A stretch of 64,000 bases of DNA, from NCBI RefSeq assembly GCF_003315245.1, contig NZ_QNRT01000002.1, positions 478,206 through 542,205 on the forward strand, given 5' to 3'. A program made the translations under genes and the position numbers. The stretch is from Arenicella xantha. GTDB taxonomy: Bacteria; Pseudomonadota; Gammaproteobacteria; Arenicellales; Arenicellaceae. Below the pieces are notes generated by a model. That model saw nothing but the letters and a program-made list of their open reading frames with translations, had not been told where the DNA came from and did not search any database. Below, piece after piece: positions 4,027 through 28,601 of this stretch (positions within the stretch are counted from its first letter, which is position 1; each line of letters begins with the position of its first letter).

Positions 4027-5102
4027 TGAAAATAATAAGAAGAAGTCTTTTAGGGCTATTCACAGCACTCATTCTAATCTGGTTAGCGACAATCCTAGCG
4101 CTGCAATTTGAACACCATGAATACACTCCAGTCAGTCAAGAGCAGCGCGATCAAGCGTCGCACTACTTAGCAAACAAGATCACACCAATACCCTCCGACT
4201 GGCAATGGGAATCGTTTGAGGCTGAACCTGGCGTTATACTTAGAACCGGCATACTTGATGTCGCGAACGCCAAAGGAACCGTGGTTTTCGTACCTGGATT
4301 TACCGGCTCCATCGACATGTCCATGAGCACCATTACCCAGCTCTCGCAAAATGGTTACCGCGTGGCCGCCATTGAGTATCGCGGCCAAGGCAAGTCGTAT
4401 CGTCCACTCGCGCACCCAGAAAAAGGTTACGTCCAAGACTATCAATTACTGGCCAACGATTTAGCCAAATTCGCACGTCATGTAAAACGCAACAACGAAC
4501 CGCTGTATTTCTTCTCAATCTCCAAAGGCGCCCACCTCACCATGCGCATGGCAGCCGAATTCGACGTCGACGCAAGCGCCTATGCGCTTGTCGTACCGAT
4601 GATTAAAATCAATACCGGCAACACGGATTACCAATGGGTAGAGCGCAGCGCGAACGCACTGAATGCGATTGGTTTAGGCAAAATGTACGCGCCAGGACAA
4701 GCGCAATGGCCTCCCCTACCATTAAAGTTTGGCGAAGCGAATGAATGCAACAGCAATCCCGACACAGCCCAACTTCAAAGCGCTATGTTTGCCCTCGATG
4801 AATCGTTGCGAGTGCGTGGCACCACAGTTAAATGGCTAATAGAAACGATTCACTCGAGCCATTTACTAATGTCCGACGGATTTATGCACGCACTGACGCA
4901 ACCGGTAAAGATTTTCACCGCTGGGGACGACCGCCTAGTCGATACCGATGCAGCCCAGCAGTTTTGCTCATCGCTAACGCAATGCGAAGTGCAACACTAT
5001 CCTGACGCGCGACACTGTATCAACAGAGAAGATCCAGAACGAATGCACGCTATTGTTGATGCCGCGGTTACACATTTTGAGTCAGCCAACAAACGGGCAT
5101 GA
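4027..5102 (+). CDS. Membrane-anchored alpha/beta-hydrolase (lysophospholipase-like)
   Basis: N-terminal TM segment (LLGLFTALILIWLATILAL). GTVVFVPGFTGS…YRGQGKS is an alpha/beta-hydrolase signature. I chose the start at the Met preceded by gagaag. Confidence 0.65.
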
Positions 5103-5219
5103 AATCGAGTTGTGTTGTACATTGAGATTTACATCGCACTACTCGAAAACAGTAGCCATACGCAAACAACACATTTGAGAATGCATTGTCAGAGCTTGAA
5201 CATGACCCTTAGCTTAACG

Positions 5220-5765
5220 CTACGGCTTGTAAGGGTCATCTGCTAATAGATAGGCAATCACCTCAGACCGCTCATCCATCTTGTCGATCTTTGCTCGAAA
5301 CGCCTTAATATCGGCGTAATGCTCGCCAAAACGCTTAGCGTATAATCCATCCAAAATATCAGCGGACTCCTTTGAGCGCACGTCGCTTTGCCAGTGATCG
5401 GTAAATATCTCATTCAATCGTCCGGCCAAGCCCTGCTCCTTGAGCAACGCCCACTCGCCTTTATCAAGCCAAACAGCATTAATATGCGGGCTCAAATCGA
5501 GTCGATGCTCGGTTTCTTTGGCTATCCGATACTTTGTCATCAAACGCCCAGTCTTCGGACATAACAGCGCTCGTTCAGTCTCTTGGATTTCAACCTTAGT
5601 CGAAGTATCGCTTATAAATAGCGCATTTTCATTAGCGTCCTGCCACCGTAAATAGTCACCAAGCATGACCAAATTACCGCCACAATCAGTACAAGTATGG
5701 CAAGGAAACAAACCTTCCAGATAAGCCGGAATCAATAATCCAGACTCACAAGCAGTACATTTCAT
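5220..5765 (-). CDS. Zinc-ribbon domain protein
   Basis: N-terminal CxxC…CxxC…CxxC cluster (MKCTACESG…CHTCTDCGG). Family unknown. Confidence 0.45.
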   Translation of the reverse strand: MKCTACESGLLIPAYLEGLFPCHTCTDCGGNLVMLGDYLRWQDANENALFISDTSTKVEIQETERALLCPKTGRLMTKYRIAKETEHRLDLSPHINAVWLDKGEWALLKEQGLAGRLNEIFTDHWQSDVRSKESADILDGLYAKRFGEHYADIKAFRAKIDKMDERSEVIAYLLADDPYKP

Positions 5766-5866
5766 CGTCAGTCACCTCCGTTAGAAAATTATTTTCACTT
5801 ATATCAACATAGCATAAGGTGTTGTCATCATTGAATATTTTGTTACTAGAGCCTCAGCAAAAATCC

Positions 5867-5923
5867 TTACATGTAATTTATATTTGACAAACTTACATGT
5901 AATAGTATAAATTTCTTACATGA
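5867..5923 (+). promoter_or_regulatory. Consensus sigma70 promoter (TTGACA-N16-TATAAA) carrying two perfect palindromes TTACATGTAA plus a half-site over the start codon
   Basis: TTACATGTAA sits at 5867-5876 and 5893-5902 and is its own reverse complement. TTGACA is at 5884-5889 and TATAAA at 5906-5911. TTACATGA at 5916-5923 overlaps the ATG at 5920. This is the classic layout of a repressor operator inside a promoter spacer. Confidence 0.5.
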
Positions 5924-6546
5924 CGAAAAAATCATCCGCAGAATACCAAAGAGAATATCGCCGACGGTTGCGCGAACAAGGCTTGGTTAAGAAAGAGGTT
6001 TGGGTACTTCCTGACAACAGCAAGCAGTTAAGTGCTTTTGAGCAGGAACTACGTAAACCACAACTCAATCACACCGCAGGGTTAACGACAGGAGAGAGCC
6101 ATATGAATGAAAAAGCTGCACACCGCTGGACCACTGAGAGTTTATTCACCGCACTGAAAGAGCGCCCAGCGTTTAGCAACGGTAGCTGTTCGATAGAAAT
6201 CATTGACGGCATTGACTCATCAATTGTGATTTTAATGCATCAATATGGCGACCTTCCGATCTTCATTACCGCTGGCGGCGAGCAAATCTTAGCAGAGGCG
6301 GTACTCTTCTCAGTTAACGATGTCGCCGATACCAGCAAATTTAACGAATATGTATTGCGCACACACAAGTACCTTCCACTGTCGACCATCAGCATTGAGA
6401 CAGACTTGGAACATGGCGATTACTACCACATGTTTGGCGCGCTGAGCTCGTCATCGAGTATCAACGCGGTAGTTCTTGAAGTAGAAACACTAGCCGAAAA
6501 CGTGATCCAAGCAACAGAAGCTTTCAAAGCATTTTTAACAGTTTAA
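5920..6546 (+). CDS. YbjN/DUF2170-like (E. coli YjfI-like) protein; the alternative internal start at 6103 has a strong SD (GGAGAGAG)
   Basis: The C-terminal 147 aa (from MNEKAAHRW…) have the size and hydrophobic pattern of YbjN/DUF2170-family proteins, which precede the PspA homologue yjfJ in E. coli. The 61-aa basic N-terminal extension (EYQREYRRRLREQGL) is in frame. If the promoter above is used, the long form would be leaderless. Confidence 0.4.
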   Translation: MTKKSSAEYQREYRRRLREQGLVKKEVWVLPDNSKQLSAFEQELRKPQLNHTAGLTTGESHMNEKAAHRWTTESLFTALKERPAFSNGSCSIEIIDGIDSSIVILMHQYGDLPIFITAGGEQILAEAVLFSVNDVADTSKFNEYVLRTHKYLPLSTISIETDLEHGDYYHMFGALSSSSSINAVVLEVETLAENVIQATEAFKAFLTV

Positions 6547-6589
6547 CCGGCCAGGAACGGCCACCATTAATATAAACACCGGAGATAAC

Positions 6590-7279
6590 ATGAACATTTG
6601 GTCCAAGATGATAACCGCATTACGTGGCGGCGTTAATGAAGCAGGCGAAGCCGTGATTGACGCTCAGGCGTTGCGCATACTTGATCAAGAGATAAGAGAT
6701 GCCTCTGAAGAGCTGAATAAGTCCAAAGACGGTCTCGCATCAATCATCGCACAACAAAAATTGGCTGAGGAAAAGGTCAATACGATCAAAGCGGACATCA
6801 AAAAGAACGAAGGCTTTATTCTTGCCGCATTAGAAAAAAAGGATGAATCATTAGCACAAGAGCTAGCGGTAAGAGTTGCCAACTTCGAAAACCAACTCGA
6901 GAGTGAAACCGAGGCTGCCAAAACGTTTAAACTACAAGCGGACAACTTGCGTGAATCGATCCGAACCGCCGACTCGCAGATAAAGCAACTCAAGCAGCAG
7001 ACCGAAACCGTTAAAGCCACCGAAGCCGTACAGCGTGCGCAAAAAGTAGTCGCCGAACGGCACAGCGGCAGCAACTCAAAGCTACGTACTGCGCTGGATT
7101 CTCTCGATAGAATCCATGAAAACCAGAAGTTAAGCGCCGCAAAAATGGCCGCCGCCACCGAGTTGGCACAAGAGTCTGGTGAATCGTCACTAGATCAAAA
7201 GCTGCGCGATGCTGGCATTACCGGCGCATCGAAAGCCGATGACGTACTGGCACGCATGAAAGCCAAAACAAAGAAGTAA
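6590..7279 (+). CDS. PspA/IM30 (phage-shock protein A / Vipp1) family protein
   Basis: 229-aa all-helical protein. MNIWSKMITALRGGVNEAGEAV…LRILDQEIRDA is the characteristic PspA N-terminus, with coiled-coil heptads throughout. Good RBS ggagataac. Confidence 0.8.
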   Translation: MNIWSKMITALRGGVNEAGEAVIDAQALRILDQEIRDASEELNKSKDGLASIIAQQKLAEEKVNTIKADIKKNEGFILAALEKKDESLAQELAVRVANFENQLESETEAAKTFKLQADNLRESIRTADSQIKQLKQQTETVKATEAVQRAQKVVAERHSGSNSKLRTALDSLDRIHENQKLSAAKMAAATELAQESGESSLDQKLRDAGITGASKADDVLARMKAKTKK

Positions 7280-7496
7280 ATGCACCATTTATGGGTTCCA
7301 GCCCCTATTCAGGAGAGTCCGCGACGCAGGAGCAAACGCAGGGCTGGGATCTGTAAAACTCGCAAGGACACAGGCCAAGTTTAAATGCGATAATCGCCTC
7401 GAAGCATTAGCCGAACACTCAAAACGAGCGTTTAACCAGAAGTCACTAATAATAAATCACTTCGCCATCGAATGGCGATAACTAGAGGGAGTCTGC

Positions 7497-8180
7497 ATGT
7501 TCGCTATATTTCTGCATGAAAGCATGAACCCATTCCATCAAACGGTGACATCATTTCCAACTGTGATTTACACCATCTTATTGATTATTTGCGCTATCTA
7601 TTGGTTAGTTGCAGTAATGGGGCTTGTTGAAATTGACATCCTTGACTTTGATTTAGACGGCGACATTGACGCTGCCGACTCAACATCACTGCAAGAAGGA
7701 ATCGCTGGCATTTTGCATCGAATCGGCCTGGCTGGCGTGCCACTTACCGTGGTGTTAACAATCATCGCCTGCATCGGCTGGTTACTGTGTTACTACACGA
7801 CCTATTTTATTCGACCGCTACTACCCGATGTGACCCTAATTAGGCTAGCCCTTGGCCTTGTCACCTTTGTGGTCGCCACCTACATCACGGTTCTGACCAC
7901 TGCGCAAATACTTAAGCCGATACGTAGCCTATTTCAACGACTCGACTACGACGAGACCAAATACATTCTCGGACAAACGGTGGTTGTTCGATCATCCATC
8001 GTCAACCGAGACCGAGGAGAAGCCGAGTTAAACGATGGTGGCGCAGGATTACTGCTTAATGTCAGAGCCACTGGAGATGAACAATTCACTAAAGGTCAGG
8101 AAGTGGTTGTCATTGAACAACTCGAAGACCAAAACCTATTTCGGGTTGTTGCCAAAGCAGAATTTGGCTCAACCGAATAA
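7497..8180 (+). CDS. YqiJ/NfeD-like inner-membrane protein (C-terminal OB-fold NfeD domain)
   Basis: Several TM helices followed by a C-terminal beta-rich segment (LGQTVVVRSSIVNRDRGEAELNDGGAGLLLNVRATG…VVVIEQLEDQNLFRVV) typical of short NfeD partners of flotillins. It sits immediately upstream of the flotillin gene, as in yqiJK/yuaFG. Confidence 0.6.
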   Translation: MFAIFLHESMNPFHQTVTSFPTVIYTILLIICAIYWLVAVMGLVEIDILDFDLDGDIDAADSTSLQEGIAGILHRIGLAGVPLTVVLTIIACIGWLLCYYTTYFIRPLLPDVTLIRLALGLVTFVVATYITVLTTAQILKPIRSLFQRLDYDETKYILGQTVVVRSSIVNRDRGEAELNDGGAGLLLNVRATGDEQFTKGQEVVVIEQLEDQNLFRVVAKAEFGSTE

Positions 8181-8212
8181 ACCTATTTAACTTTTTCTAT
8201 AAGGAGACAATT

Positions 8213-10075
8213 ATGGCTGATCTATCTGGATGGATACCTATCGCATCTATTGTGGGCTTCATTGCGTTTGTGCTTTTCATCGCGTTACCCATTGTACTGA
8301 AAAAATTCTACATCAAAGTAGAACAAGGAACCGCCTTGATCATTAATACCCTGCGTGCCAAACCACGCGTCACCTTTACCGGTGGCATGGTATTGCCGAT
8401 CATTCACATGAAAGAGTTGATGAAAATTTCACTCATCACGCTCGAAGTGGATCGACGCGGTAAAGACGGCCTTATCTGTAAAGATAATATGCGAGCTGAC
8501 ATCACCGTGGCGTTCTATTTGCGTGTTAACGAAACTGAACAAGACGTGTTACGCGTCGCTAAAGCAGTGGGAACTCAACGCGCCTCTGACAACCAAGCGG
8601 TTTACACCTTGTTCGCCGCCAAATTCAGTGAAGCTTTAAAAACCGTTGGCAAGAAAGTTGACTTCGAGGAACTATTCGAAGACCGACAACGCTTTCGCGA
8701 TGCGATTGTTGAAGCCATTGGCCGCGATTTAAACGGCTATTCACTCGAAGACGTGGCCATTGATTACTTGGAACAAACGCCTAAGTCTGCGCTCGACCCG
8801 AACAACATTCTAGACTCTCAAGGCATCAAGAAGATTACCGAGCTCACTGCCAAACAAAACATTCAAACCAACATCTTCGAGAAAGATGAAGAGCTCGCTA
8901 TCACCAAGAAAAATGTCGAAGCTCGTGAAGCGATGCTAGAACTCGAACGTCAACAAGCCGACGCCGAAGCCAAGCAAGCTCGCGAAGTAGCCAGCGTGAT
9001 TGCTCGTGAAGAAGCCGAAACACTTAAGATTCAAGAAGAAGAACGCCTTAAGTCCGAAACCGCTTCTATCGAAGTAGTGAGAGATCTGGCCATACAGTCT
9101 GAGAATCAACAACGCGAAATCGAGATCGCCAATGAAAATCGCCAACGCGCGGTAGCTATCGAGACTGAAAAGGTCGAGCGTACTAAGCGCATGGAACGTG
9201 TGCACAGTGACCGCGAAGTGGAACTAACGCGCATTGAAGCCGACAAAGAAGTAGAGCGTGAGAAAAAGAACATCGCCGACATTATTCGCGAGCGCGTTGC
9301 TGTCGACAAAACCGTCGCCATCGAAGAAGAGAAGATCAACGAAGTTCGCGAAGTATCCGAAGCCGACCGTCTTAAGCAAATTCAAGTTAAAGGTGCTGAA
9401 GCAGTTGCTGAAGAACAAAAAGTCAAAGAGGTCAAAGCTGCCGAAGCCGCTGAAATCGCCGCGAAGCATAAAGCAACCGAAGTAACCACACTAGCTGAAG
9501 CTAACCTCGAAGCGGCCGAGAAAGACGCTGCTGCCAAGATCAAGCTCGCCGAGGCCACCAAAGCTCAACAAGCAGCGGCTGGCTTAGCCGAAGCCGAAGT
9601 GATCCGTGCCATGGGCCAATCAGAAGCCGAAGTCATTCGACAAAAAGGGGAATCAGAAGCCGATGCCGAGCTCAAAGTAGGTTCATCTAAAGCCGACGTA
9701 ACGCTGAGACAGTTCCGCGCCGAAGCCGAAGGTCTTACTGAGAAGTTCGAAGCCATGAACAGTATGAGTCCAGATGCACGCTCGCACGAGGAGTTCCGTA
9801 TGACGCTTGAGACAGCTCTAAAAGAGACCTTGGCCTCAATCGAAGCCGGCAAACTAATCTCTAAAGAGAATGCAGAAGTGCTCGCCACGGCGCTGCGCGA
9901 AGCGAAGATTGACATCGTCGGCGGCGAAGAGCATTTCTTTGACACATTCGCTAAATCACTGTCTATGGGTAAGGCTATCGACGGCTTGGCCAACAAGAGC
10001 GAGACCATTCAAGGCTTGCTAGGTCAGTTGTCGCACTTTATCCCCACTAAAGACGACAGCAAGTCAGCCAGCTAA
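8213..10075 (+). CDS. Flotillin-like SPFH/band-7 protein (YqiK/FloT-like)
   Basis: N-terminal TM anchor, SPFH domain, then ~350 aa of EA-rich coiled coil (AEAKQAREVA… AEAEVIRAMGQSEAEVIRQKGESEA). Strong RBS aaggaga. Confidence 0.8.
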   Translation: MADLSGWIPIASIVGFIAFVLFIALPIVLKKFYIKVEQGTALIINTLRAKPRVTFTGGMVLPIIHMKELMKISLITLEVDRRGKDGLICKDNMRADITVAFYLRVNETEQDVLRVAKAVGTQRASDNQAVYTLFAAKFSEALKTVGKKVDFEELFEDRQRFRDAIVEAIGRDLNGYSLEDVAIDYLEQTPKSALDPNNILDSQGIKKITELTAKQNIQTNIFEKDEELAITKKNVEAREAMLELERQQADAEAKQAREVASVIAREEAETLKIQEEERLKSETASIEVVRDLAIQSENQQREIEIANENRQRAVAIETEKVERTKRMERVHSDREVELTRIEADKEVEREKKNIADIIRERVAVDKTVAIEEEKINEVREVSEADRLKQIQVKGAEAVAEEQKVKEVKAAEAAEIAAKHKATEVTTLAEANLEAAEKDAAAKIKLAEATKAQQAAAGLAEAEVIRAMGQSEAEVIRQKGESEADAELKVGSSKADVTLRQFRAEAEGLTEKFEAMNSMSPDARSHEEFRMTLETALKETLASIEAGKLISKENAEVLATALREAKIDIVGGEEHFFDTFAKSLSMGKAIDGLANKSETIQGLLGQLSHFIPTKDDSKSAS

Positions 10076-10087
10076 GCACGAGCTGAC

Positions 10088-10113
10088 GGGGCAGCGCACA
10101 CTTATGCGCTGCC
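10088..10113 (+). terminator. 9-bp GC-rich stem-loop (gggcagcgc…gcgctgccc) after the flotillin gene; possible terminator or attenuator
   Basis: Perfect 9-bp stem seen in sequence. The downstream T-run is interrupted, so this may be only a partial terminator. Confidence 0.45.
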
Positions 10114-10167
10114 CTACTCTGGTGATTCTTATAAATCTCAGGATCACGCCCAATCGACCCGCCACCG

Positions 10168-10419
10168 ATGGTGATTTTTATGACTAAGTCCTACGACTAT
10201 ATTGAAATGGCATTTCGTTCAATCGAGTGCTTCTCCAAAGACGGAAAACTCAAGGCACACGAACTAGGTCAGGTCCTCGCTATTGCGGAGCGTGACGGAA
10301 CCATCGATCAGAATGAAATTCGCGTCTTGAGAAAAATTATTGGCAAAATAAAACCGTCTGAAGTGGACCGCGCGATGCGTGACAAACTTCAGGAAATATC
10401 AAATAAAATCAATAATTAA
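10168..10419 (+). CDS. Small TerB-like (tellurite-resistance TerB / DjlA N-domain-like) protein; tentative
   Basis: 83 aa. DGKLKAHELGQVLAIAERDGTIDQNEIRVLRKII resembles the TerB helical repeat (DG.i…E…l). A shorter start is possible at 10183. Confidence 0.3.
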   Translation: MVIFMTKSYDYIEMAFRSIECFSKDGKLKAHELGQVLAIAERDGTIDQNEIRVLRKIIGKIKPSEVDRAMRDKLQEISNKINN

Positions 10420-10479
10420 GCGCAACAACCCTCCAGTTACGCACTCAATTCCATGCGACCCCAATCATAAACGGACGAT

Positions 10480-13400
10480 ATGAGCAAAGACGAAACACAA
10501 ATTATTGACAACGCGGTCGCCGAAGCCGGCGCCTACGATGTAATTCGCAAACGCCTTAACGAGCAAGGTTCTAATTTACAGACGCTAGCGCAACAACTGA
10601 ATCAACAACGTTTATCTGAGTTCGGTGGCGTCGAAATCCAAGCCATTGCTCGCACTCGAGTAAGAACCGAAAACAACTGTATAGCACGCGATATTGTGCG
10701 AGTTGGCGATCAGCTTTTATTCGGCTATAACGTGTTTATCGGTCTCAAAAAAGAAACTCATATCGACGACGTTTTTGCCCTATTTGAACTAGTGCAAGAC
10801 GGCGACACCTTTGAGTTACAAGCAGCTGACATCCAAAAATCATTTCTGGCCGACTCTCGTTTCCAAGGCGATTTCGACGAACTGTATCGCTACTATAAGG
10901 AATCTCGCCTGGTTCAATTACGCGTTATCGATGGCAAGCTACTCGCTGGATTCCAAGTGGGCGAACGCGCCACAGACATTCGCGTGTTTCGTTGGGCGAT
11001 CTCCGCTGACGGCAAGCAGTTTGATTACATTGACAATCGCGGGGAACGCGATATCGAGCTTCCCACTCAATACGACTTCGAGTGGATCGAAACCAGTCGC
11101 GACGACTTCGTACATGGCCGACATCCGCACGTTAACATCGCCGACACCGTATTTGTCGAAACCATTAATGGCGAGCTCACGGTCAAGGTTGAGGACAATA
11201 CTGAAGACGGTCTTGGTATCTATTCCGAACAAGTACAAGAAGCCAACCAGTCACTAGACGACGCAAGTATTAGCTATGCCAAGGTTGGCAATCTCATTCT
11301 ATTGGCCGTAACGCCATATAAAGAAGAAAAAACGCGCTACCTCGTCTTCAACTCCCTAACCCAACAAGTCGAGCGCATCGATGCCATTGGGCAGTCCTGC
11401 ATCGGCCTGCCCGAAGGCCACGGCATTATCTTCCCTGGCGGAATTTATTTAGACACGGGCGAATCGAAGTCGTTTCCAGATGACATTAATGGTTTGACCT
11501 TCAAACGCATGATTCGCTCGCCCAACGGCGAAGATGTGCTGTATGTGTTCTACGAGCAAGTCGAAGGCAAGTTCGGATTATTTAGCTACAACCTAATTAC
11601 TCGATCGCTACAAAACCCAATTTTTGGCAATGGTTATGGACTCTTTCCCGACGGCAAGTTGATCGTTTTCTCAGCGGAGGCTGAACCCACTCGTGTACAT
11701 CCAATGCAACTTTGGCAGACCTCGTATATCAGCGCCGAATTTGCCAGCGAACAACCCGAGAGCACTACCGAGCTAGGCAAGATTGGCAACTCAGAATTAG
11801 TCCGCGGCATTTCAGACCTGTTCTCTATTCACCAACTCATTGAGAAAAAAGAAGTATCAATGCGCCACTACGAGGAGCTTCGAGAGGCCACGCGTAAGAT
11901 CTTCGATATGCACTATTGGCTCGACTCCAGCGCACGACCTGAAATTGCCGCTACGTTACGCGAAGTCGGACAAACCTCTGAACTGGTTATCGATGAATTC
12001 GAAAAAGTTCAAAGCATTCAACTGCAATCGAGCCAAGCGCTGAGCGAAGCAAAATCTAAACAGCGCACACTACTAAGTCGTATTCAAACCACCACTTGGG
12101 AAACTGCCGAACAGTTTGTCGCATCGATTCTCGAAATACGTAAGCAACGCGGCCATATCGCCACCATTAAAAGCTACCGCTACATTAATGTCGAAGAGCT
12201 CGAACAACTCGAACAGGCGCTGACTGATGCTGAAACACAACTGGGAACCCAGACCACCGAATTTCTAACCGCAGAAGACTCGCTGCAGTCCTACAGTCAG
12301 CACACCGCCGCATACGCCGAACAAATCGACATGGCTCAAACGAATGCTGAAATCCGCCCCATCATTGAGTCGATTGGCGAGACCACGGCACAGTTAGACT
12401 TGCTCTCGGAACTGATCACCACCTTGAAAATCGACGACACCACAGTGCGAACGCGTATTGTCGACACGATCTCTGAGGTCTACGCCAACCTTAATCAAAC
12501 CAAGGCACGCGGCACGCAAAAGCAAAAGGGGCTCGGCTCAGAAGAAGCAATCGCGCAATTTTCAGCACAATTCAAACTATTCTCGCAGAGCATCACGAAT
12601 GCGCTCAGTGCGTCAGATACACCGGACAAATGTGATGAACAGCTAGCCAAACTATTAGTACAGCTCGAGGATCTGGAGAGCCAGTTTAGCGACTACGATC
12701 AATTTCTTGGCGACATTATGGACAAGCGCGAAGAGATCTATGAATCGTTCGAAGCGCACAAGCAAAGCCTAATGGAAGCGCGACAACGACGCGCACAAAC
12801 TCTGAGTGATTCCGCCGCGCGTATCCTCAATAGCATCGAGAAACGCTCACTTAAATTAGCTAACAGCGACGACCTAAACACTTACTTTGCATCCGATGCC
12901 TTAGTACTCAAGACCGACGAGCTAATCGAACAGTTACGCGCACTTGACGCGCAGATTAATGCCGATGATGTGCAGTCACGATTCAAGGGAATCAAAGAAC
13001 AAGCTATTCGGGCATTACGCGACAAGACCGACATCTATGAAGACGGTGGTAAAGTCATTAAGTTGGGGCCAAAACACAAATTCAGCGTCAACCAACAAGA
13101 ACTCGACCTCACCATAATTCCGCGCAACGATCAGCTCTACTTCCACCTTATTGGTACTGACTTCTATGAGCCAGTAAGCGACCCTAAACTGGCCGATGCA
13201 CAGCAATACTGGTCAATGTCGCTCGAGTCTGAAACACCGGATATCTACCGTGCCGAGACACTCGCATTTCTAGTCCTTGATGCCGCGCGACAAGGGCAAC
13301 ACGAGCTTAGTATGAAGGGTTTATACGAAGTTCTAAAAAAACCAGACGAGCTGACCAAGCTACTACGTGATTTCTCCACGCCGCTTTATAAACACGGCTA

Positions 13401-15864
13401 TCAAAAAGGCATACACGACTTCGATGCGTCACTTATTCTGCAAGCCATTTTACCGGCCATAACCGCAGCTGAGCTGTTAACCTTTGAACCGAGTGCTCGA
13501 GCACTTGCCACCGTGTTCTGGCACAACTTGCCGTTATTAGAAAACCAAGATGCAAAAGAGCTGCAAGCGGACTGGTCACAACGCGCTATTTCAAGCCGCG
13601 TATTGCGCGAGCTCTTTACCGACGATCAGGCTTTACGCCTACTCGCGGTTGAAATTCATAATGCCATTGAACGCTTCTTAGCCACCTTTCCGATTCCCAA
13701 TATGGCATCTTCCAGCTATCGAGCGGCGGAATACCTGGTCGAACATTTAGCTGAACACAGCGGCAAATTCATACAGAGTCGCTACGCACGTGATTTGCAA
13801 GCGCACTTTGACCGTAGCCTGAACAGCGAATCCAGCAAACTATTCCGTGAGTCGATCAAACGGCTGGCACATAAACCCGACCAAGCTTGGTCGAGTGCGC
13901 ACGCTTGGTTAACCGCCGTATCAAACTCCATGCGTGACTCACACCCTGAAGTATTGACCATGCAACGCTACATACCCGAAGTTATCGGTCAGCTGATAAC
14001 CGGCGTCGACACCGCAGCGTCCTCAGCAAAATTAGAACTCGAGGTTGAAGGCTTGCTCGGGGAACATAACAAGATTTCCCAACAAACCTTGTCGTTTAGT
14101 CTCGACGAATACCTGCAAAGAATGGAGCATCATCAACGTGTGACTTTGCCAGCATATCGTGATTATCTAACGCTACGTAGCGACGTCATGAAGTCCGAGC
14201 GGAACAAGCTCAAGCTCGAATCGTTTAAAGCAAAACCACTTAGTTCATTTGTGCGAAATCGCTTGGTGAATGAATCATACCTGCCGTTGATTGGTGACAA
14301 TCTCGCTAAGCAAATGGGCACAATCGGTGACACTAAACGAACCGATTTGATGGGCTTATTAATGATGATCTCGCCACCAGGCTACGGTAAAACCACATTA
14401 ATGGAATACGTGGCCAATCGTTTAGGGCTGATCTTTATGAAGATCAACTGTCCTTCGCTCGGGCATGATGTTACCTCGCTGGATCCAGAGCAAGCACCTA
14501 ACTCCACCGCACGCCAGGAGCTAGAGAAAATTAACTTGGCATTTGAGATGGGTAACAATGTGATGCTGTATCTGGACGATATTCAGCATACTCATCCAGA
14601 GTTTTTGCAAAAATACATTTCGCTGTGTGATGGCACACGACGCATTGATGGGGTATGGCGCGGTCAAACAAAGACCTATGATATGCGCGGCAAAAAGTTC
14701 TGCGTGGTAATGGCGGGCAACCCTTACACCGAATCTGGCGAAGTGTTTAAAGTTCCAGACATGCTCGCAAACCGCGCAGACATCTACAATTTGGGCGATA
14801 TATTAGGCGGCATGGACGAGCAGTTTGGGCTAAGTTATATAGAAAATGCATTAACATCCAATGCCGTACTCGCGCCGCTCGCCACACGTGACATGCAAGA
14901 TGTGTATCGACTCATCGATATGGCCAAAGGCAAGAACGTGGCAGCCACCGAACTTAGTCATCAATACAGCGGAGCTGAAATCAACGAGATCAGCAGCGTA
15001 TTCGAGAAGCTATTCGTCATTCAATCGCTAATCTTAAAAGTGAATCAGCAATACATTGCCTCCGCCGCACAGGCTGATCGCTATCGAGTTGAACCCCCTT
15101 TCAAACTACAAGGCAGTTATCGCAACATGAACAAAATGGCCGAGAAAGTATCGGCAGTAATGAATCATGACGAGCTAATGCAACTGATCGAAGACCACTA
15201 TCAAGGCGAGGCGCAGCTACTTACCAACGGTACGGAGCAGAATCTACTTAAGCTTGCCGAGTTACGCGGTAACTTAACGCCCGAAGAAACAGTTCGTTGG
15301 GAGCAAATTCGAGCCGACTTTAAGCGCAGTAAAGCATTAGGCGGAGAAGACATCGATGGCAGCACGCGAATCGCCAATCAGATGATGGACTTAGTAGCAC
15401 GACTAGACGAAATCAATGAGTCGGTTGCGAGTTCCGTGGCTGCCAGCAAACAACAACATGCTAGTGATGGAGCAGCTCAATCTAAATTGGCTGAGCAACG
15501 ACTCGAGTTAGAAGCGAAACAAACGCGCGCGTTACTAAAATCTCTGGCGTCCATTAGCGAAGCGCTGGGCACACAGGCCGCTCCTACCGTTGAAGTGATT
15601 AATCAGCCATCAGACAAAATGATCAATACACTAGACATCATGGCAGCCGCGATGGAAACCAGCATACAACCGCTACTCCTAAGCATGGAGAAGAAGATGG
15701 ATATTGATCTGCGCACCTTAGAAAAAATCCATGATTTAACGCAGCGCATCCAAACGATTAAAGATGAAGCATCCTTGACCACGCGCACGACTCAGCGCAA
15801 AACGAGCAAAACTCAGCAAGGGTCTAGTAGAGAAGCGACTAAGCAAAAGCCAAACAAGGACTAA
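10480..15864 (+). CDS. Giant (1794 aa) coiled-coil P-loop ATPase with a MoxR/AAA_5(dynein/midasin)-like module; function unknown
   Basis: Walker A SPPGYGKTTLMEY, Walker B VMLYLDDIQH, sensor-1-like VVMAGNPYT and an Arg in VPDMLANRADIYN are all present. The ATPase is preceded by a ~430-aa globular N-domain and ~600 aa of coiled coil, and followed by C-terminal coiled coil. No TM segment. Confidence 0.75.
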   Translation: MSKDETQIIDNAVAEAGAYDVIRKRLNEQGSNLQTLAQQLNQQRLSEFGGVEIQAIARTRVRTENNCIARDIVRVGDQLLFGYNVFIGLKKETHIDDVFALFELVQDGDTFELQAADIQKSFLADSRFQGDFDELYRYYKESRLVQLRVIDGKLLAGFQVGERATDIRVFRWAISADGKQFDYIDNRGERDIELPTQYDFEWIETSRDDFVHGRHPHVNIADTVFVETINGELTVKVEDNTEDGLGIYSEQVQEANQSLDDASISYAKVGNLILLAVTPYKEEKTRYLVFNSLTQQVERIDAIGQSCIGLPEGHGIIFPGGIYLDTGESKSFPDDINGLTFKRMIRSPNGEDVLYVFYEQVEGKFGLFSYNLITRSLQNPIFGNGYGLFPDGKLIVFSAEAEPTRVHPMQLWQTSYISAEFASEQPESTTELGKIGNSELVRGISDLFSIHQLIEKKEVSMRHYEELREATRKIFDMHYWLDSSARPEIAATLREVGQTSELVIDEFEKVQSIQLQSSQALSEAKSKQRTLLSRIQTTTWETAEQFVASILEIRKQRGHIATIKSYRYINVEELEQLEQALTDAETQLGTQTTEFLTAEDSLQSYSQHTAAYAEQIDMAQTNAEIRPIIESIGETTAQLDLLSELITTLKIDDTTVRTRIVDTISEVYANLNQTKARGTQKQKGLGSEEAIAQFSAQFKLFSQSITNALSASDTPDKCDEQLAKLLVQLEDLESQFSDYDQFLGDIMDKREEIYESFEAHKQSLMEARQRRAQTLSDSAARILNSIEKRSLKLANSDDLNTYFASDALVLKTDELIEQLRALDAQINADDVQSRFKGIKEQAIRALRDKTDIYEDGGKVIKLGPKHKFSVNQQELDLTIIPRNDQLYFHLIGTDFYEPVSDPKLADAQQYWSMSLESETPDIYRAETLAFLVLDAARQGQHELSMKGLYEVLKKPDELTKLLRDFSTPLYKHGYQKGIHDFDASLILQAILPAITAAELLTFEPSARALATVFWHNLPLLENQDAKELQADWSQRAISSRVLRELFTDDQALRLLAVEIHNAIERFLATFPIPNMASSSYRAAEYLVEHLAEHSGKFIQSRYARDLQAHFDRSLNSESSKLFRESIKRLAHKPDQAWSSAHAWLTAVSNSMRDSHPEVLTMQRYIPEVIGQLITGVDTAASSAKLELEVEGLLGEHNKISQQTLSFSLDEYLQRMEHHQRVTLPAYRDYLTLRSDVMKSERNKLKLESFKAKPLSSFVRNRLVNESYLPLIGDNLAKQMGTIGDTKRTDLMGLLMMISPPGYGKTTLMEYVANRLGLIFMKINCPSLGHDVTSLDPEQAPNSTARQELEKINLAFEMGNNVMLYLDDIQHTHPEFLQKYISLCDGTRRIDGVWRGQTKTYDMRGKKFCVVMAGNPYTESGEVFKVPDMLANRADIYNLGDILGGMDEQFGLSYIENALTSNAVLAPLATRDMQDVYRLIDMAKGKNVAATELSHQYSGAEINEISSVFEKLFVIQSLILKVNQQYIASAAQADRYRVEPPFKLQGSYRNMNKMAEKVSAVMNHDELMQLIEDHYQGEAQLLTNGTEQNLLKLAELRGNLTPEETVRWEQIRADFKRSKALGGEDIDGSTRIANQMMDLVARLDEINESVASSVAASKQQHASDGAAQSKLAEQRLELEAKQTRALLKSLASISEALGTQAAPTVEVINQPSDKMINTLDIMAAAMETSIQPLLLSMEKKMDIDLRTLEKIHDLTQRIQTIKDEASLTTRTTQRKTSKTQQGSSREATKQKPNKD

Positions 15865-15906
15865 GCAGCACGCTTGACCGATAATTCGCCGCCATACAGG
15901 AGACCT

Positions 15907-15941
15907 AGCGCTGGCATCAAACAGGTTTTGATACCAGCGCT
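15907..15941 (+). terminator. Imperfect long hairpin between convergent genes (possible bidirectional terminator)
   Basis: agcgctggcatcaaacaggttttgataccagcgct has near-palindromic 16-nt arms. Confidence 0.4.
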
Positions 15942-15953
15942 AAACTTGAACAG

Positions 15954-17498
15954 TTATTTAACAGAGTCAGGACAACAACCACACACCGTCATCGGTACGC
16001 CTTTGTTGGTCCACTGCCCGTTCCACTTCGAGAAACCAGCCTGTGGTGCACACGCCGTTGGGCACGCCGCATCAGCTTGCGCTTGATTATTAATAAGAGT
16101 GGCCGACGCTACGTCTTTGCATTGCCCCAAAATCATGTCATCAAAACTATGACTTAGATGCGCAGCAAACGAAGTATTTGGTTGGTTCGCCACATTCGCG
16201 GTGCCGTTGTAGTTGTGACATCCGAAACAATTCAATGCGCCGCCGCCGTTTGCCGCGCTCCCTTGAAAAGTTGTCTCCAATACCACATTCGCTAGCTCTA
16301 ATGAGCCACGCTGATTGGTGGTCGATGCGGGGCTAGACGAACCTGAGCCTTTACTGATATCCGAAACCCACAAAGCCCCATTGAATTCGTAACTTTTCCA
16401 CACATCAAGACTAGCCGGTACGCCTGCGCCAGCCAACACGGTTTGTTGCGCTGCATTCAACTTTTCAATCAACGCAATATTAAGGCCATTACGTGTATCA
16501 ATAGGGTCGCCCTCTACCGTGCCATACGGAAACTCTTGGCAGATATCATTGCCACGCTGACCTGACGGCAAGCTAACCGTCGTAAATGGTTGAGACTCGT
16601 TGAGTTTTTGGCAGGCTGTGGCGTCGACTGCGCAAGCCTCGCTGGTAAAATCGTACGCCGATTGACCTTTGGCCATGTCCGCACAATCAACCGCATTGGC
16701 CTGATGGTCGAGGGTAATCCACACCATTTCTGGATGATTATCCGCCGCCACAACGATATGCCAGCCAATCATGCCAAGTGTGTAATCTACTCCATCAATG
16801 GTCGCATCTGACAACACAAATCCATCAGTGCTCTCATTCGGCTTCATGACTCTCCAAGCCATTTTCATTTCCACCGTTTTAGCTGGAAAGTTTGGCTCTG
16901 ACTGAATCGCTGCATAGTCACACAGATTATGCGACAAACGAATTTCGTAGAAAACCACGTTACCGGCTTGATCATAGATCGCGTGAGCGCCCGCTTGGTC
17001 TGTTCTTTCCGGCAAAATAATAGCGCCAGTATCGTCAATGGTTTTAGCGGTACGAATACTCAAACCCCGATCCTTAGTTGCACCGTCGCACGAATTTGCG
17101 CCTATTTCCAGCACCGGATACTGGGCTTGATCTTGCCAATTAGCCAAACCCGGTTTAGCACTTGGTGAAATCAGATACAGAAACCAGTCTTGTGCGAATT
17201 GGTAGAATTCACAAAATTCAGGAGAACCCGTCACTGGGTTACTGGCAATACTTCCAGGCACCTGCGTCACCGAACGTTGCCACCAGTTGGCTGCCTGACT
17301 AAAATCACAATTTTTGACCTGATCGGCATTCGACAAGCTCGCTGCTACAGCACTCGGCTCAGCCGCCCAAAGGGTCGGGGAATAAGCACTTTGTGCTATC
17401 ACAAAACTGGTTACAAGACACACGGCAATCTGTTTAGCGAGCCACAGACGTGCCCTTTTGCCACGAACATTCATTTTTGCAAGGATAATTTTTCTCAT
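15954..17498 (-). CDS. Secreted hypothetical protein with a single CXXCH (CFGCH) heme-binding-type motif near the C-terminus
   Basis: Start chosen at MRKIILAKMN… (GGAG RBS) with signal peptide …VIAQSAYS. The C-terminal region is Cys-rich (CFGCHN, CPTACAPQ, CGCCPD). Confidence 0.5.
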   Translation of the reverse strand: MRKIILAKMNVRGKRARLWLAKQIAVCLVTSFVIAQSAYSPTLWAAEPSAVAASLSNADQVKNCDFSQAANWWQRSVTQVPGSIASNPVTGSPEFCEFYQFAQDWFLYLISPSAKPGLANWQDQAQYPVLEIGANSCDGATKDRGLSIRTAKTIDDTGAIILPERTDQAGAHAIYDQAGNVVFYEIRLSHNLCDYAAIQSEPNFPAKTVEMKMAWRVMKPNESTDGFVLSDATIDGVDYTLGMIGWHIVVAADNHPEMVWITLDHQANAVDCADMAKGQSAYDFTSEACAVDATACQKLNESQPFTTVSLPSGQRGNDICQEFPYGTVEGDPIDTRNGLNIALIEKLNAAQQTVLAGAGVPASLDVWKSYEFNGALWVSDISKGSGSSSPASTTNQRGSLELANVVLETTFQGSAANGGGALNCFGCHNYNGTANVANQPNTSFAAHLSHSFDDMILGQCKDVASATLINNQAQADAACPTACAPQAGFSKWNGQWTNKGVPMTVCGCCPDSVK

Positions 17499-18029
17499 AG
17501 TACACTCCATATAACGGGGCTTTTGATCTAGCTTTGTATAAAGCTATTCATCTAGCCCCAGATCGTTAATAACTTAACAACAAACTGTGCTGTTAATCAC
17601 TCAATATGAGGGCGTCTAAGCGTCAAAACGGTGATGCGTTGTCGCAACATTCCATGCGGTCCTTTCCTGCCAAGCGCTATACCGGCTGGACACAACAGTT
17701 TAGTTTTTAAAAACCGTAATGCGCCAGTTTCTCCATAAGCTCTACCAAAACTATAGTAAAGCTTAATGTGATATTACGTTGGCGATGCCGTATCGTCCGT
17801 ATGACACAAATTACTTAAATTGCCGACTCCACACCGCCCCCCAGCGCGCGGTAGTCAGTCAAAAACTTGTCTGCTAACCGACAAGCTCCTAATTACCGTA
17901 AACTCTTTTTCTGGACAATGATACTGACGTTAGTCTAATAATGTAACTGCGACAATACTCACCTAATATTCCACTTCGCCAATTAAAATATTGCTGCGCC
18001 CTTTAAATTAGCTCTTTAGGATCCTAAAC

Positions 18030-20069: not shown

Positions 20070-22226
20070 CTAAGGATTGATCTTGAGCGCGGGATCCCCA
20101 AGCAAATGCCAACCAAGTTGCACCGCCGGAAAATCGCTATACTGAGCCAATGCTTGCTTGGCCTGAATCATTGCCTCGCCGATAGTCATACCCTTAAGAT
20201 ACATGCGCTTATTTAGCTCAATACCTAACGCGCGCTCACCGACAGAACTAGTCAATGTCGATGCGCCCATAACACTAGCCGCCCCGTTCTCACCGGACAG
20301 CAGCAACATGTCGGATATCGTGTTGCCTCGAGGATCCACAAAATACGTGTTCCAGCAGCCCCACTGAGTAACCACCGTGGGCTTATTAAGGTTCGTTAGA
20401 TCGGCCACCTGCGATGCTCGCAACATTGGAGGAGTGGTATATGCCCAGCTCTGTTGTGATGAGTGCCCAATGTAAGACACCACCGACACGCCTTGGTTGA
20501 TGAGGCTTAGTAGCTTGTCATGCGCTTGCTGGTGACCATCGATATCAGGATAAACGCGAAAGTCTTCACGTACTCCATCGGACCACTCGCTCGGAATCGC
20601 AGCGATCATGTCGTCGGCATCCTTAGAGAACGACACGCCATTACCAAGGTCGTTCTTATCGGTCACCACCACTGTTCTACCTAAATACCCTGAGCGATTC
20701 TCATAGGCCTTGATCTTGCTCACTACATTGGCCAACTCACTCGGTGTTCTCGCGGAAATACGCGCCACCACCAGTTCGGGTATGCCATCTTCATTGAGGT
20801 CACCGTAGGCAACATCAGACGGAGTTTGAGTAATAGTCAGCGCACCACCTGGCGTAGTCACATAGCGCGTAGGTACTAAACTGACTGAACTCGAAGTGAT
20901 GTTTTTGTAGTCCAGCGTATCGCTGCCAAGTAGCACAACCATCGTCGTGCCCATATGCGTCGCTGCGTGCTTAATGTACGACTGGATCCCTTCCGCGCCA
21001 AACATGTGATGACCGAACTGAGCATAGATATCCGCCACATCGACGACCTTAACGAGGTAGTCTTGTGCGCGTAGTGCAACGAGTTCGTCGAGCGCTGCCC
21101 CTTGCAAACTAGCATGCGTAATAATCAGATATTCAGCGGTACCCGAAGTAATGTCCGTTGGCTCGAGAACCTCTTGCACTGTGGGTTGCGGGTAAGCGGA
21201 TTCACCAATTACAAGATACTCAGCGGCTACACCGCCGGTATTAAACACCACCGAGTCATCTTGATAGCGGATTCCGCGCTTATTTAGTTTTTCGATATGG
21301 CCATCGTCCAAACGCCGATAGACATTAGCCGAAGCTTCACCAAAGTTAGATACTTCGAGTTGCTCGGCATCAACAAAGCCAGCCAGATATCGTTGACCTT
21401 CGGCATCAGCAGAACGTCGATAGCTTACGCTGAATTGGTTCAGCGCAATCCGATCAAACGGCACGCCGGCAATCGCACGATAATTATATTTAAGTGTATT
21501 CGTACCTGCCTGTAAGGGTGCATTGTCAATCGCAAGCTGAGTCGCCGAATTGCCATCAAACTGCTGATCACCAACGACTATGCCATTTACTTCAATTTCA
21601 AAGTGATGATCATTGCCTTCAATCGCAAAATCGAGCAATCCGTACATATCAACCGTAATATCACCTACCGTTGCCGCAAGATTATCAACCTCAAATTGGT
21701 AACTCGGCGTGGCAAAAAAACTAAACGTCTGACCAAAGTGATAAGGGTCAGTAGATGATGGTGAGGAGAAATCATAAGTAACATTACGCTCAATCACCGC
21801 GGTATGTAGATAACTTGAAGCAGACTCCAAGCGTCGATTAACTCGGGTATGAAATGTTTGTATTGACTTACGGTTTGCTAGCGAACGATTAGCCAGCATA
21901 TGTAGCACATACACTTGTTCGTCACGGTACAAACTATCAGCGGGTTCAGCATAAAATTCAATGTAGCCGCCTCCTCCAAACTGACGATTGCGACCACCGC
22001 CTTTACCCGCTGTGGCTAACTGAACCCACTCGCCATTCAGACTCAAACCAAACCGGTCGTGCCTTAAACCGGCCAGATCAGCTCCAGCGTCGACCAACTG
22101 CTCGTAGGTAATGCGATGCATACCAGCTTGTGTAGTACTCAACGTCAATAATTCGAACGCAGCCGCCGTGTTTACAAAACCGCAAACTGCGAGTGCACTA
22201 AAGAACCTAATAAATAAATTTTTCAT
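20070..22226 (-). CDS. Secreted peptidase C25 (gingipain/PorU-like, clan CD) family protein
   Basis: Signal peptide. The catalytic-domain start pattern AEYLIITHASLQGAALDELVALRAQDYLVKVVDVADIY is present. A His-Gly-type motif YIGHS sits ~36 aa before a hydrophobic-block Cys (VVTQWGC), the clan-CD spacing. It lies 25 bp downstream of the giant adhesin and is probably co-transcribed. Confidence 0.5.
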   Translation of the reverse strand: MKNLFIRFFSALAVCGFVNTAAAFELLTLSTTQAGMHRITYEQLVDAGADLAGLRHDRFGLSLNGEWVQLATAGKGGGRNRQFGGGGYIEFYAEPADSLYRDEQVYVLHMLANRSLANRKSIQTFHTRVNRRLESASSYLHTAVIERNVTYDFSSPSSTDPYHFGQTFSFFATPSYQFEVDNLAATVGDITVDMYGLLDFAIEGNDHHFEIEVNGIVVGDQQFDGNSATQLAIDNAPLQAGTNTLKYNYRAIAGVPFDRIALNQFSVSYRRSADAEGQRYLAGFVDAEQLEVSNFGEASANVYRRLDDGHIEKLNKRGIRYQDDSVVFNTGGVAAEYLVIGESAYPQPTVQEVLEPTDITSGTAEYLIITHASLQGAALDELVALRAQDYLVKVVDVADIYAQFGHHMFGAEGIQSYIKHAATHMGTTMVVLLGSDTLDYKNITSSSVSLVPTRYVTTPGGALTITQTPSDVAYGDLNEDGIPELVVARISARTPSELANVVSKIKAYENRSGYLGRTVVVTDKNDLGNGVSFSKDADDMIAAIPSEWSDGVREDFRVYPDIDGHQQAHDKLLSLINQGVSVVSYIGHSSQQSWAYTTPPMLRASQVADLTNLNKPTVVTQWGCWNTYFVDPRGNTISDMLLLSGENGAASVMGASTLTSSVGERALGIELNKRMYLKGMTIGEAMIQAKQALAQYSDFPAVQLGWHLLGDPALKINP

Positions 22227-22250
22227 AGCTATTTCTCGATCGTCGCTAGT

Positions 22251-28200: not shown

Positions 28201-28601
28201 ATATCCAAACCTGGCGGTGGATCAATGTCACAACTGCCACCGGCCGCTATGACATTAGCCGGACAAGTAAAATTTGAATCAAAATTTCGACCATCAGGAT
28301 CGATTAAGGTTGCAGTCACGACAACACTTTGCGGATTACCAAGCCCGTCCGTATAGTTGACCGTATAGTTTTGGCTCGCGCCATCCGTATTATTGGTGTC
28401 TAACCACTCATTGCCAGTACCCACGCCGGTCGACCAAGAAAAAGTCGCCGGAGAACTATTAGCCGGACATGTTTGTGCATACCCAGAGGTCGGGAATAGT
28501 AAAAATATTCCGATCGTGGCTAATAGCCCAGAGTGTTTTGCATCCAGCGAACCGAAAATACACCCAACCAAATCGCGAAACTTACGATTGAATTTCATCA
28601 A
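22251..28601 (-). CDS. Giant (2116 aa) secreted adhesin-like protein with DUF11 and many SdrD-B/Cna-B-type Ca-binding repeats
   Basis: Signal peptide. DUF11-like segment [34 protein letters not shown]. More than 10 repeats of the (F/W)xDx(N/D)xDGxxDxxExGxxGVxVxL type, giving extensive intragenic DNA repeats. Confidence 0.8.

Follow-up and report, generated by a model that had tools for sequence, protein, structure and literature searches.

An Arenicella xantha member of the bac family of PspA, flotillin and giant AAA+ ATPase operons, with a predicted operator region upstream of bacA

Genes and proteins of the locus

The stretch of Arenicella xantha DNA analysed here (64,000 nucleotides of contig NZ_QNRT01000002.1, hereafter the window) carries six co-directional + strand open reading frames (ORFs) that occupy positions 5920-15864; the ORF list confirms the coordinates given for them in a preliminary description of this DNA. 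In order, they encode a BacA-like DUF2170/YjfI protein (5920..6546, 208 amino acids, aa), a BacB-like PspA/IM30 protein of the ESCRT-III type (6590..7279, 229 aa), a BacC-like membrane protein of the YqiJ type (7497..8180, 227 aa), a BacD-like flotillin of the YqiK type (8213..10075, 620 aa), a small protein predicted to form four helices (10168..10419, 83 aa) and a giant AAA+ ATPase with DUF3686, DUF7902 and AAA/AAA_5 matches (10480..15864, 1794 aa), the counterpart of bacE/PA3728. The homologies set out below make it essentially settled that the cluster is not a new system and belongs to an already described operon family, the PspA-flotillin-giant AAA+ family represented in Pseudomonas aeruginosa by bacABCDEF (PA3732-PA3727; PA14_16140-16200), the 'biofilm-associated cluster'. 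The six ORFs are separated by 32 to about 217 bp (43 bp between bacA and bacB), and no convincing + strand terminator was found within the cluster.

Hidden Markov model searches bear out the YjfI-like and PspA labels given earlier to the first two proteins. The bacA product matches Pfam DUF2170 with E = 1.5e-46 and aligns over residues 1-207 with positions 1-203 of 206 of NCBIfam NF050185 (biofilm formation regulator BacA). Its score of 272.7 bits stands against an equivalog cut-off of 300, so that by the NCBI rule its sequence marks it as a homologue and not an equivalog. The bacB product matches PspA_IM30 (E = 5.9e-42, profile positions 1-217 of 220). After the PspA core, BacB proteins conserve a C-terminal motif, L..KL..AGI-(5-6 aa)-A..VL.RLK, which is loosely reminiscent of the MIM motifs of ESCRT-III proteins and is a candidate docking peptide for BacA or the ATPase.

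BacC and BacD have no Pfam match of their own and found nothing in sequence searches of the PDB; their assignments come from profiles of their orthologs, which uphold the YqiJ/NfeD and flotillin pair of the preliminary description. With hhalign, the BacC profile matches E. coli YqiJ at a probability of 93.7% (E = 2e-7), and Pfam YqiJ_N is matched by 11 of 37 orthologs (best E = 6.9e-5). The BacD profile matches the E. coli flotillin YqiK at 99.9% (E = 1.4e-34, 390 columns); among 38 orthologs, Band_7 is found in five (best E = 1.3e-7) and Flot in two. BacC has N-terminal transmembrane helices followed by a C-terminal beta-rich domain, and BacD a transmembrane segment, an SPFH/band-7 domain and a long coiled coil.

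The spacer between bacB and bacC (7280-7496) is unusually long, with 217 bp where other loci have some 15-100 bp. Within it are a 17-bp stem (7288-7304 paired with 7341-7357) and a small hairpin (7462-7478), and it folds only marginally better than shuffled sequences (z = -1.8). The spacer is not conserved elsewhere and has no Rfam match, and an Rfam scan of 5000-16500 returned nothing. It could act as an attenuator or stabiliser setting the ratio of BacAB to BacC-F.

The giant protein is 100% identical to an A. xantha entry at NCBI with the product name 'DNA repair ATPase'. In it, Pfam places DUF3686 at residues 33-479 (E = 4.8e-198) and DUF7902 at 600-683 (E = 2.4e-24), followed by a helical middle part, an AAA+ module (about 1250-1620, with AAA/AAA_5 above gathering score at roughly 1294-1417) and a helical tail. 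The DUF3686 region is described as a beta-propeller by Ravi et al. (PMC11237479). The Walker A, Walker B, sensor-1 and arginine motifs of the AAA+ module are intact, and 21 homologues show no variation in PPGYGKTT (Walker A, 1299-1306), LYLDD (Walker B, 1363-1367), AGNP (1412-1415) or ANRAD (1430-1434). Their pattern points to a divergent, AAA_5-like AAA+ domain that is probably active. The earlier label of a MoxR/AAA_5 type is weak beyond this pattern: AAA_5 scores 29 bits (cut-off 22, profile positions 2-126 of 139) and PF00004 similarly, and the MoxR-specific AAA_3 reaches E = 0.16. Searched by profile against the PDB, the full protein gave no match, and the isolated AAA+ segment matched only a short stretch around Walker A, in p97/Rix7. 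An AlphaFold2 model of residues 1150-1794 (pLDDT 65, pTM 0.36) has a beta-hairpin before sensor 1, and Foldseek relates it at similar E-values to MCM, ClpA, Lon, RuvB, NorQ and Cdc48, a spread of generic AAA+ folds.

Linkage of the genes across genomes

A profile of the giant protein was run against one genome per species (GTDB) and found 583 relatives; the best 80 loci were kept and their ORFs searched with the six window proteins. Upstream DNA is available for 72 of the 80. All 72 have genes for a YqiJ-like protein, a flotillin and the giant ATPase side by side in that order, the YqiJ-like gene always coming directly before that for the flotillin and the giant always next to the flotillin gene. 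In about 50 of the 72 (some two thirds) the DUF2170-PspA dyad comes immediately before these genes and in the same orientation, with bacB orthologs after bacA in 49 loci. Among the taxa represented are Pseudomonas, Cellvibrio, Lysobacter/Stenotrophomonas, Comamonas, Xenorhabdus, Gilliamella, a zetaproteobacterial metagenome-assembled genome and Longimicrobium. The linkage is kept across Gamma- and Betaproteobacteria and beyond, supporting the view that the genes form one functional module. Chance adjacency, which was also considered, is ruled out by an order and adjacency kept in 80 loci from many genera, and the linkage proposed in the preliminary description is upheld. The invariant core is the YqiJ-like protein, the flotillin and the giant AAA+ protein, with a PspA/BacA front end that is frequent and accessories (PLD, rhomboid-like, Zn-ribbon, small four-helix) that are swappable.

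We regard the cluster as the A. xantha member of the bac family acting as a PspA-type inner-membrane stress and remodelling system, to which we assign a probability of about 0.6. A role in membrane stress is the best reading of the PspA protein, the flotillin/YqiJ pair and the induction of the P. aeruginosa PspA-like gene PA3731 by osmotic shock (PMC2587700).

The most serious alternative is that the cluster consists of two neighbouring but separate units, one a PspA dyad of the YjfI-YjfJ type, the other a flotillin-YqiJ-AAA+ unit able to function in the absence of PspA. About 22 of the 72 loci (in Stenotrophomonas, Glaciecola and Xenorhabdus, for example) indeed have the three core genes without the dyad directly upstream, the dyad is divergent in two loci (L039 and L067), and abbreviated operons without PspA are also noted by Ravi et al. 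(PMC11237479). Nevertheless, about 50 loci from distant lineages have the dyad immediately before the core genes and in the same orientation, the P. aeruginosa genes are all co-transcribed and co-regulated (PMC10948618), and in the window no terminator or good promoter was seen between bacB and bacC, despite the 217-bp spacer. We consider two separate units unlikely here, and partly true of the lineages without PspA.

The preliminary description proposed a machine for membrane surveillance or for anti-phage defence resembling abortive infection, with the ATPase as effector or scaffold. In an anti-phage system, PspA and flotillin would sense the perturbation of the membrane by phage and the giant ATPase (together with PLD in other species) would be the effector. 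The membrane-stress part of this proposal stands with the PspA, the flotillin/YqiJ pair and the induction of PA3731; to the anti-phage part we give little credence. All phage-infected P. aeruginosa samples share 17 up-regulated genes, PA3728-PA3732 among them (PMC12041424), but induction by envelope stress, phage included, is general for Psp systems. An HKD/PLD gene follows the ATPase gene in about 20 of 74 loci and accessory gene content varies, yet the Arenicella locus lacks PLD, and the order of the core is kept across many genera in the manner of a housekeeping stress operon. PADLOC-DB 2.0 gave no real hit, only low-scoring coiled-coil matches of PspA to JetC/LmuB; the base composition of the locus is that of its flanks in the window, and no mobile, integrase or defence genes lie near it. 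Least probable is that the giant is a DNA-repair ATPase merely adjoining membrane genes: the NCBI product name 'DNA repair ATPase', the like wording of the Pfam DUF3686 description and a RecJ gene 1-6 kb downstream in several Pseudomonas loci favour it, but no experimental basis for the name was found and a full-text literature search for DUF3686 returned no papers, Pfam detects no nucleic-acid-binding or nuclease domain in the protein, the RecJ linkage is non-adjacent and confined to Pseudomonas, and the ATPase gene is always in an operon with flotillin/YqiJ genes and usually with PspA.

The fifth ORF of the cluster is one of the swappable accessories. Its more likely start, according to NCBI and the orthologs, is 10180, which gives 79 aa. 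It had been called TerB-like, a label that is subthreshold and must be taken as a lead, not a finding: Pfam TerB (PF05099) matches it with E = 0.015 (16 bits, cut-off 24.4), EF-hand models match equally and weakly, nine of 15 orthologs match TerB below threshold, and neither of two fold searches recovered a TerB fold. We read two DG-x-h-x3-E motifs in the sequence, which lack the acidic residues that canonical EF loops have at positions 1 and 3. Of the 80 loci, 14 have the gene within the cluster or close to it. In six it lies, as it does here, in the gap between flotillin and ATPase; in four it directly follows the ATPase, in two it is found about 2 kb downstream and in two, both weak matches, some 3-5 kb upstream of bacA. 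The homologue in Kangiella precedes the DUF2170 gene, and of five more homologues located on long contigs, four have unrelated surroundings. In the sister species Arenicella sp. 4NH20-0111, a decayed 47-aa ORF that has lost both DG motifs lies between flotillin and ATPase (L001 9781-9894). The gene is thus a sporadic, dispensable add-on, linked to the cluster far more often than by chance and not part of the core.

Divergent from bacA, a - strand gene (5220..5765) encodes a 181-aa Zn-ribbon protein (Zn_ribbon_TFIIB, PF13453, E = 7e-5), which is 41% identical (E = 1e-35) to the product of a Cellvibrio gene located between the PLD and TerB-like genes (locus L008). Homologues lie beside the cluster in 13 of 80 loci, in Cellvibrio and other genera. 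This homology and linkage suggest that the gene probably belongs to the system, extending the module one gene past the previously proposed boundary. A gene for a rhomboid-like membrane protein, so labelled from sequence motifs alone, directly follows the ATPase gene in 20 of 80 loci (for example L008 15290-15844), often with PLD next; it is not in the window. Neither does a PLD gene (bacF) follow the window ATPase.

The next gene in the window (15954-17510, - strand) is convergent and encodes a 518-aa protein with a C-terminal MVL mannan-binding domain; its adjacency to the cluster is not kept in other genomes. Further along on the - strand (20070-28601), a gene for a C25-family peptidase (718 aa) lies beside one for a 2116-aa surface protein with SdrD-B/CarboxypepD_reg repeats, both unrelated to the cluster.

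The bacA promoter region and the N-terminal domain of BacA

Upstream of bacA we find a palindrome, TTACATGTAA, at 5867..5876 and again at 5893..5902. The window has no further match to TYACATGTRA; the number expected is 0.31. Overlapping this stretch is a σ70-like + strand promoter (5884..5913; TTGACA, 18-nt spacer, TAAATT), which at 10 of 12 positions is the best promoter-like match in 5600-16200. The palindromes bracket the TTGAC(A) of the −35 and fill the promoter spacer, the 5893..5902 copy lying inside it, and we predict that they are the distal and proximal operators of BacA. A half-site, TTACATGA, overlaps the bacA start codon (5916-5923). The arrangement recurs across the family. At least two YACATGTR sites are present in 38 of 47 loci, near −49 and −27 relative to the bacA ATG and usually 21-24 bp apart, and of the 96 such sites in the 1.8 Mb of the 80 loci, 82 fall in the 160 bp before bacA. 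P. paraeruginosa (L027), too, has these palindromic sites and this promoter geometry upstream of its bacA.

In the window the end of the −10 hexamer lies 6 nt from the ATG, and a TANNNT hexamer ending 6-7 nt 5' of the conserved ATG is present in nearly all of the 38 loci. A Shine-Dalgarno-like 4-mer stands upstream of three of 41 bacA genes, compared to 36 of 39 bacB, 13 of 15 bacC and 13 of 15 bacD genes. The proximity of the −10 to the ATG and the missing Shine-Dalgarno sequence predict that the bacA mRNA is probably leaderless, which could be the reason why an internal start is annotated in P. aeruginosa.

The protein that starts at this ATG has a basic, conserved segment (residues 1-47, with the N-terminal domain encoded by 5920-6060 of the window and 5686-5830 of L027), a variable linker and the DUF2170/CesT-Tir-like chaperone domain (70-206). 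In an alignment of 24 orthologs residues 1-47 are the best-conserved part of BacA, with the consensus MxxKSSAxYQRxxRxRLRExGLVKKEVWILPE..L...E..LR.P. Over the N-terminal codons of 38 loci the entropy by codon position is 0.73/0.43/1.36 and the ATG is invariant, indicating that the extension is translated. In 16 of the 24 orthologs the segment matches the MazE-like family PF11455 just below threshold, suggesting a MazE-like, putative DNA-binding domain. A library-wide phmmer search with the segment found 70 representatives, comprising BacA-type proteins and a few stand-alone proteins of 60-85 aa; those checked against Pfam were MazE-like at or below the subthreshold range. The DUF2170 proteins of L062, L066, L076 and Kangiella (L082) lack the N-terminal domain, and these loci have no operator sites. 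The 146-aa P. aeruginosa BacA of the crystal structure (PDB 8Q8O) begins at a position equivalent to residue 65 and can be aligned with residues 67-206 only; the N-terminal domain is missing from it, and the term 'DNA-binding' is absent from the paper that reports the structure (PMC10948618).

The simplest reading of these features is that BacA is a direct autorepressor acting through its MazE-like N-terminal domain; its DNA binding we infer. Direct autorepression would fit the 6-13 fold increase of BacB-F in a P. aeruginosa PA14 bacA::Tn mutant (PMC10948618). On this basis we propose how the system might work. In an unstressed cell, a BacA dimer, held together by its CesT/Tir-like C-terminus, would bind the two TYACATGTRA palindromes with its MazE-like N-terminus and repress the operon, and its chaperone domain would also bind BacB. 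Membrane damage would draw BacB to the membrane, the occupancy of BacA would change and the operon would be derepressed. BacB would then assemble as an ESCRT-III-fold polymer on the damaged bilayer, in or beside a microdomain of the flotillin BacD and BacC. The giant AAA+ protein, docked via its N-terminal DUF3686/propeller and its long helical arm, may spend ATP to assemble, remodel or recycle such polymers, in parallel to the action of Vps4 on ESCRT-III. Lineage-specific add-ons would complete the system, here the four-helix and Zn-ribbon proteins and elsewhere PLD or a rhomboid-like protein.

The regulatory part of this proposal, in which BacA is a self-contained autorepressor on two operators of a leaderless σ70 mRNA, its CesT-like domain holds BacB, and recruitment of PspA to damaged membrane derepresses the operon, would amount to a partner-switch phage-shock circuit independent of PspF and σ54, and would imply that what has up to now been annotated, crystallised and interpreted as P. 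aeruginosa BacA is a truncated form. We advance it tentatively, at somewhat short of an even chance. A σ54 consensus scan (TGGCAC-N5-TTGCW, at most two mismatches), which is not proof, found no σ54-like site near bacA in the window (4832-10932) or in P. paraeruginosa.

Several points weigh against our interpretation. The MazE-like similarity lies under the Pfam threshold, and a PDB search with the N-terminal domain matched no solved structure. A σ54 promoter of bacA has been proposed in the P. aeruginosa papers, and the derepression of BacB-F in the PA14 bacA::Tn mutant could stem from read-through out of the transposon cassette. The part given to the ATPase, including its substrate, is conjectural, its AAA+ domain resembling several clades about equally and the model being of modest quality (pLDDT 65). 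Finally, the P. aeruginosa phenotypes (rhamnolipids, swarming, biofilm) are indirect, and their transfer to the marine Arenicella is uncertain.

Comparison with known systems

The preliminary description knew of no system joining these genes with an AAA+ protein of about 1800 aa, and allowed that the cluster might match one already named, as it does. Ravi et al. (mSystems 2024, 9:e00847-23; bioRxiv 2020; PMC11237479) describe an operon class made up of a CesT/Tir(DUF2170)-PspA dyad with band-7/flotillin, YqiJ/YuaF and a novel AAA+ protein, to which PLD is added in some Proteobacteria. This component list, as given in the passages on the operon type, is matched one for one by the Arenicella cluster, including the optional PLD in related loci. 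Those same passages make no mention of a small TerB/EF-hand-like gene, of rhomboid-like or Zn-ribbon accessories, of the N-terminal domain of BacA or of operators.

The P. aeruginosa bac operon has the same gene order and homologous proteins (DUF2170, PspA-like, YqiJ-like, flotillin-like and DUF3686-AAA+). RT-PCR (reverse transcription PCR) showed its six genes, bacA-F, to be co-transcribed, and the structure of BacA has been solved (Wallart et al. 2024, PMC10948618). Mutation of PA3731 causes defects in biofilm, swarming, rhamnolipids and virulence (PMC2587700). In P. paraeruginosa (L027) the order is bacA-B-C-D-giant ATPase-PLD (PLDc_2), which identifies bacE as the giant and bacF as the PLD, in agreement with the naming of PA14_16190 as an 'ATPase involved in DNA repair' (PMC8855297). 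In phmmer comparisons with this locus the Arenicella BacA, B, C, D and giant proteins give E-values of 3e-53, 1e-58, 2e-51, 3e-206 and 0. The Arenicella cluster differs from that of P. aeruginosa in having no PLD gene (bacF), in carrying the divergent Zn-ribbon gene and, after bacD and before the ATPase gene, the 83-aa four-helix one, and in its 217-bp bacB-bacC spacer.

With more than 5600 homologues of the ATPase, the operon family is widespread, and the Arenicella cluster opens no new category; its value is comparative. What appears to be new is the N-terminal domain of BacA and the operator/promoter control, seemingly undiscussed in the bac operon papers. If BacA does bind DNA and repress its own, leaderless transcript, then the σ54 model and the truncated BacA structure of P. 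aeruginosa, in which the operon affects biofilm and virulence, would need to be revisited.

In E. coli, homologues of both gene pairs joined in the window operon exist as yjfIJ (DUF2170 plus a PspA paralogue) and yqiJK (YqiJ plus the flotillin YqiK), but the pairs are unlinked and neither has a DUF3686 ATPase beside it. E. coli YjfI is a short protein and is not known to have the N-terminal domain of BacA. With E. coli PspA-PspF and with ESCRT-III-Vps4 the cluster would share, by analogy, a logic of PspA/ESCRT-III polymer, negative transcriptional feedback and AAA+ partner. The E. coli system uses PspF, whereas the regulator proposed here is a DNA-binding chaperone-like protein; no PspF, PspB or PspC was found among the cluster or flanking genes, and no σ54 site. 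The giant ATPase, for its part, is unlike Vps4 and classical AAA proteins by all tests applied, considering its PDB match confined to a short stretch around Walker A and the beta-hairpin before sensor 1 in the model.

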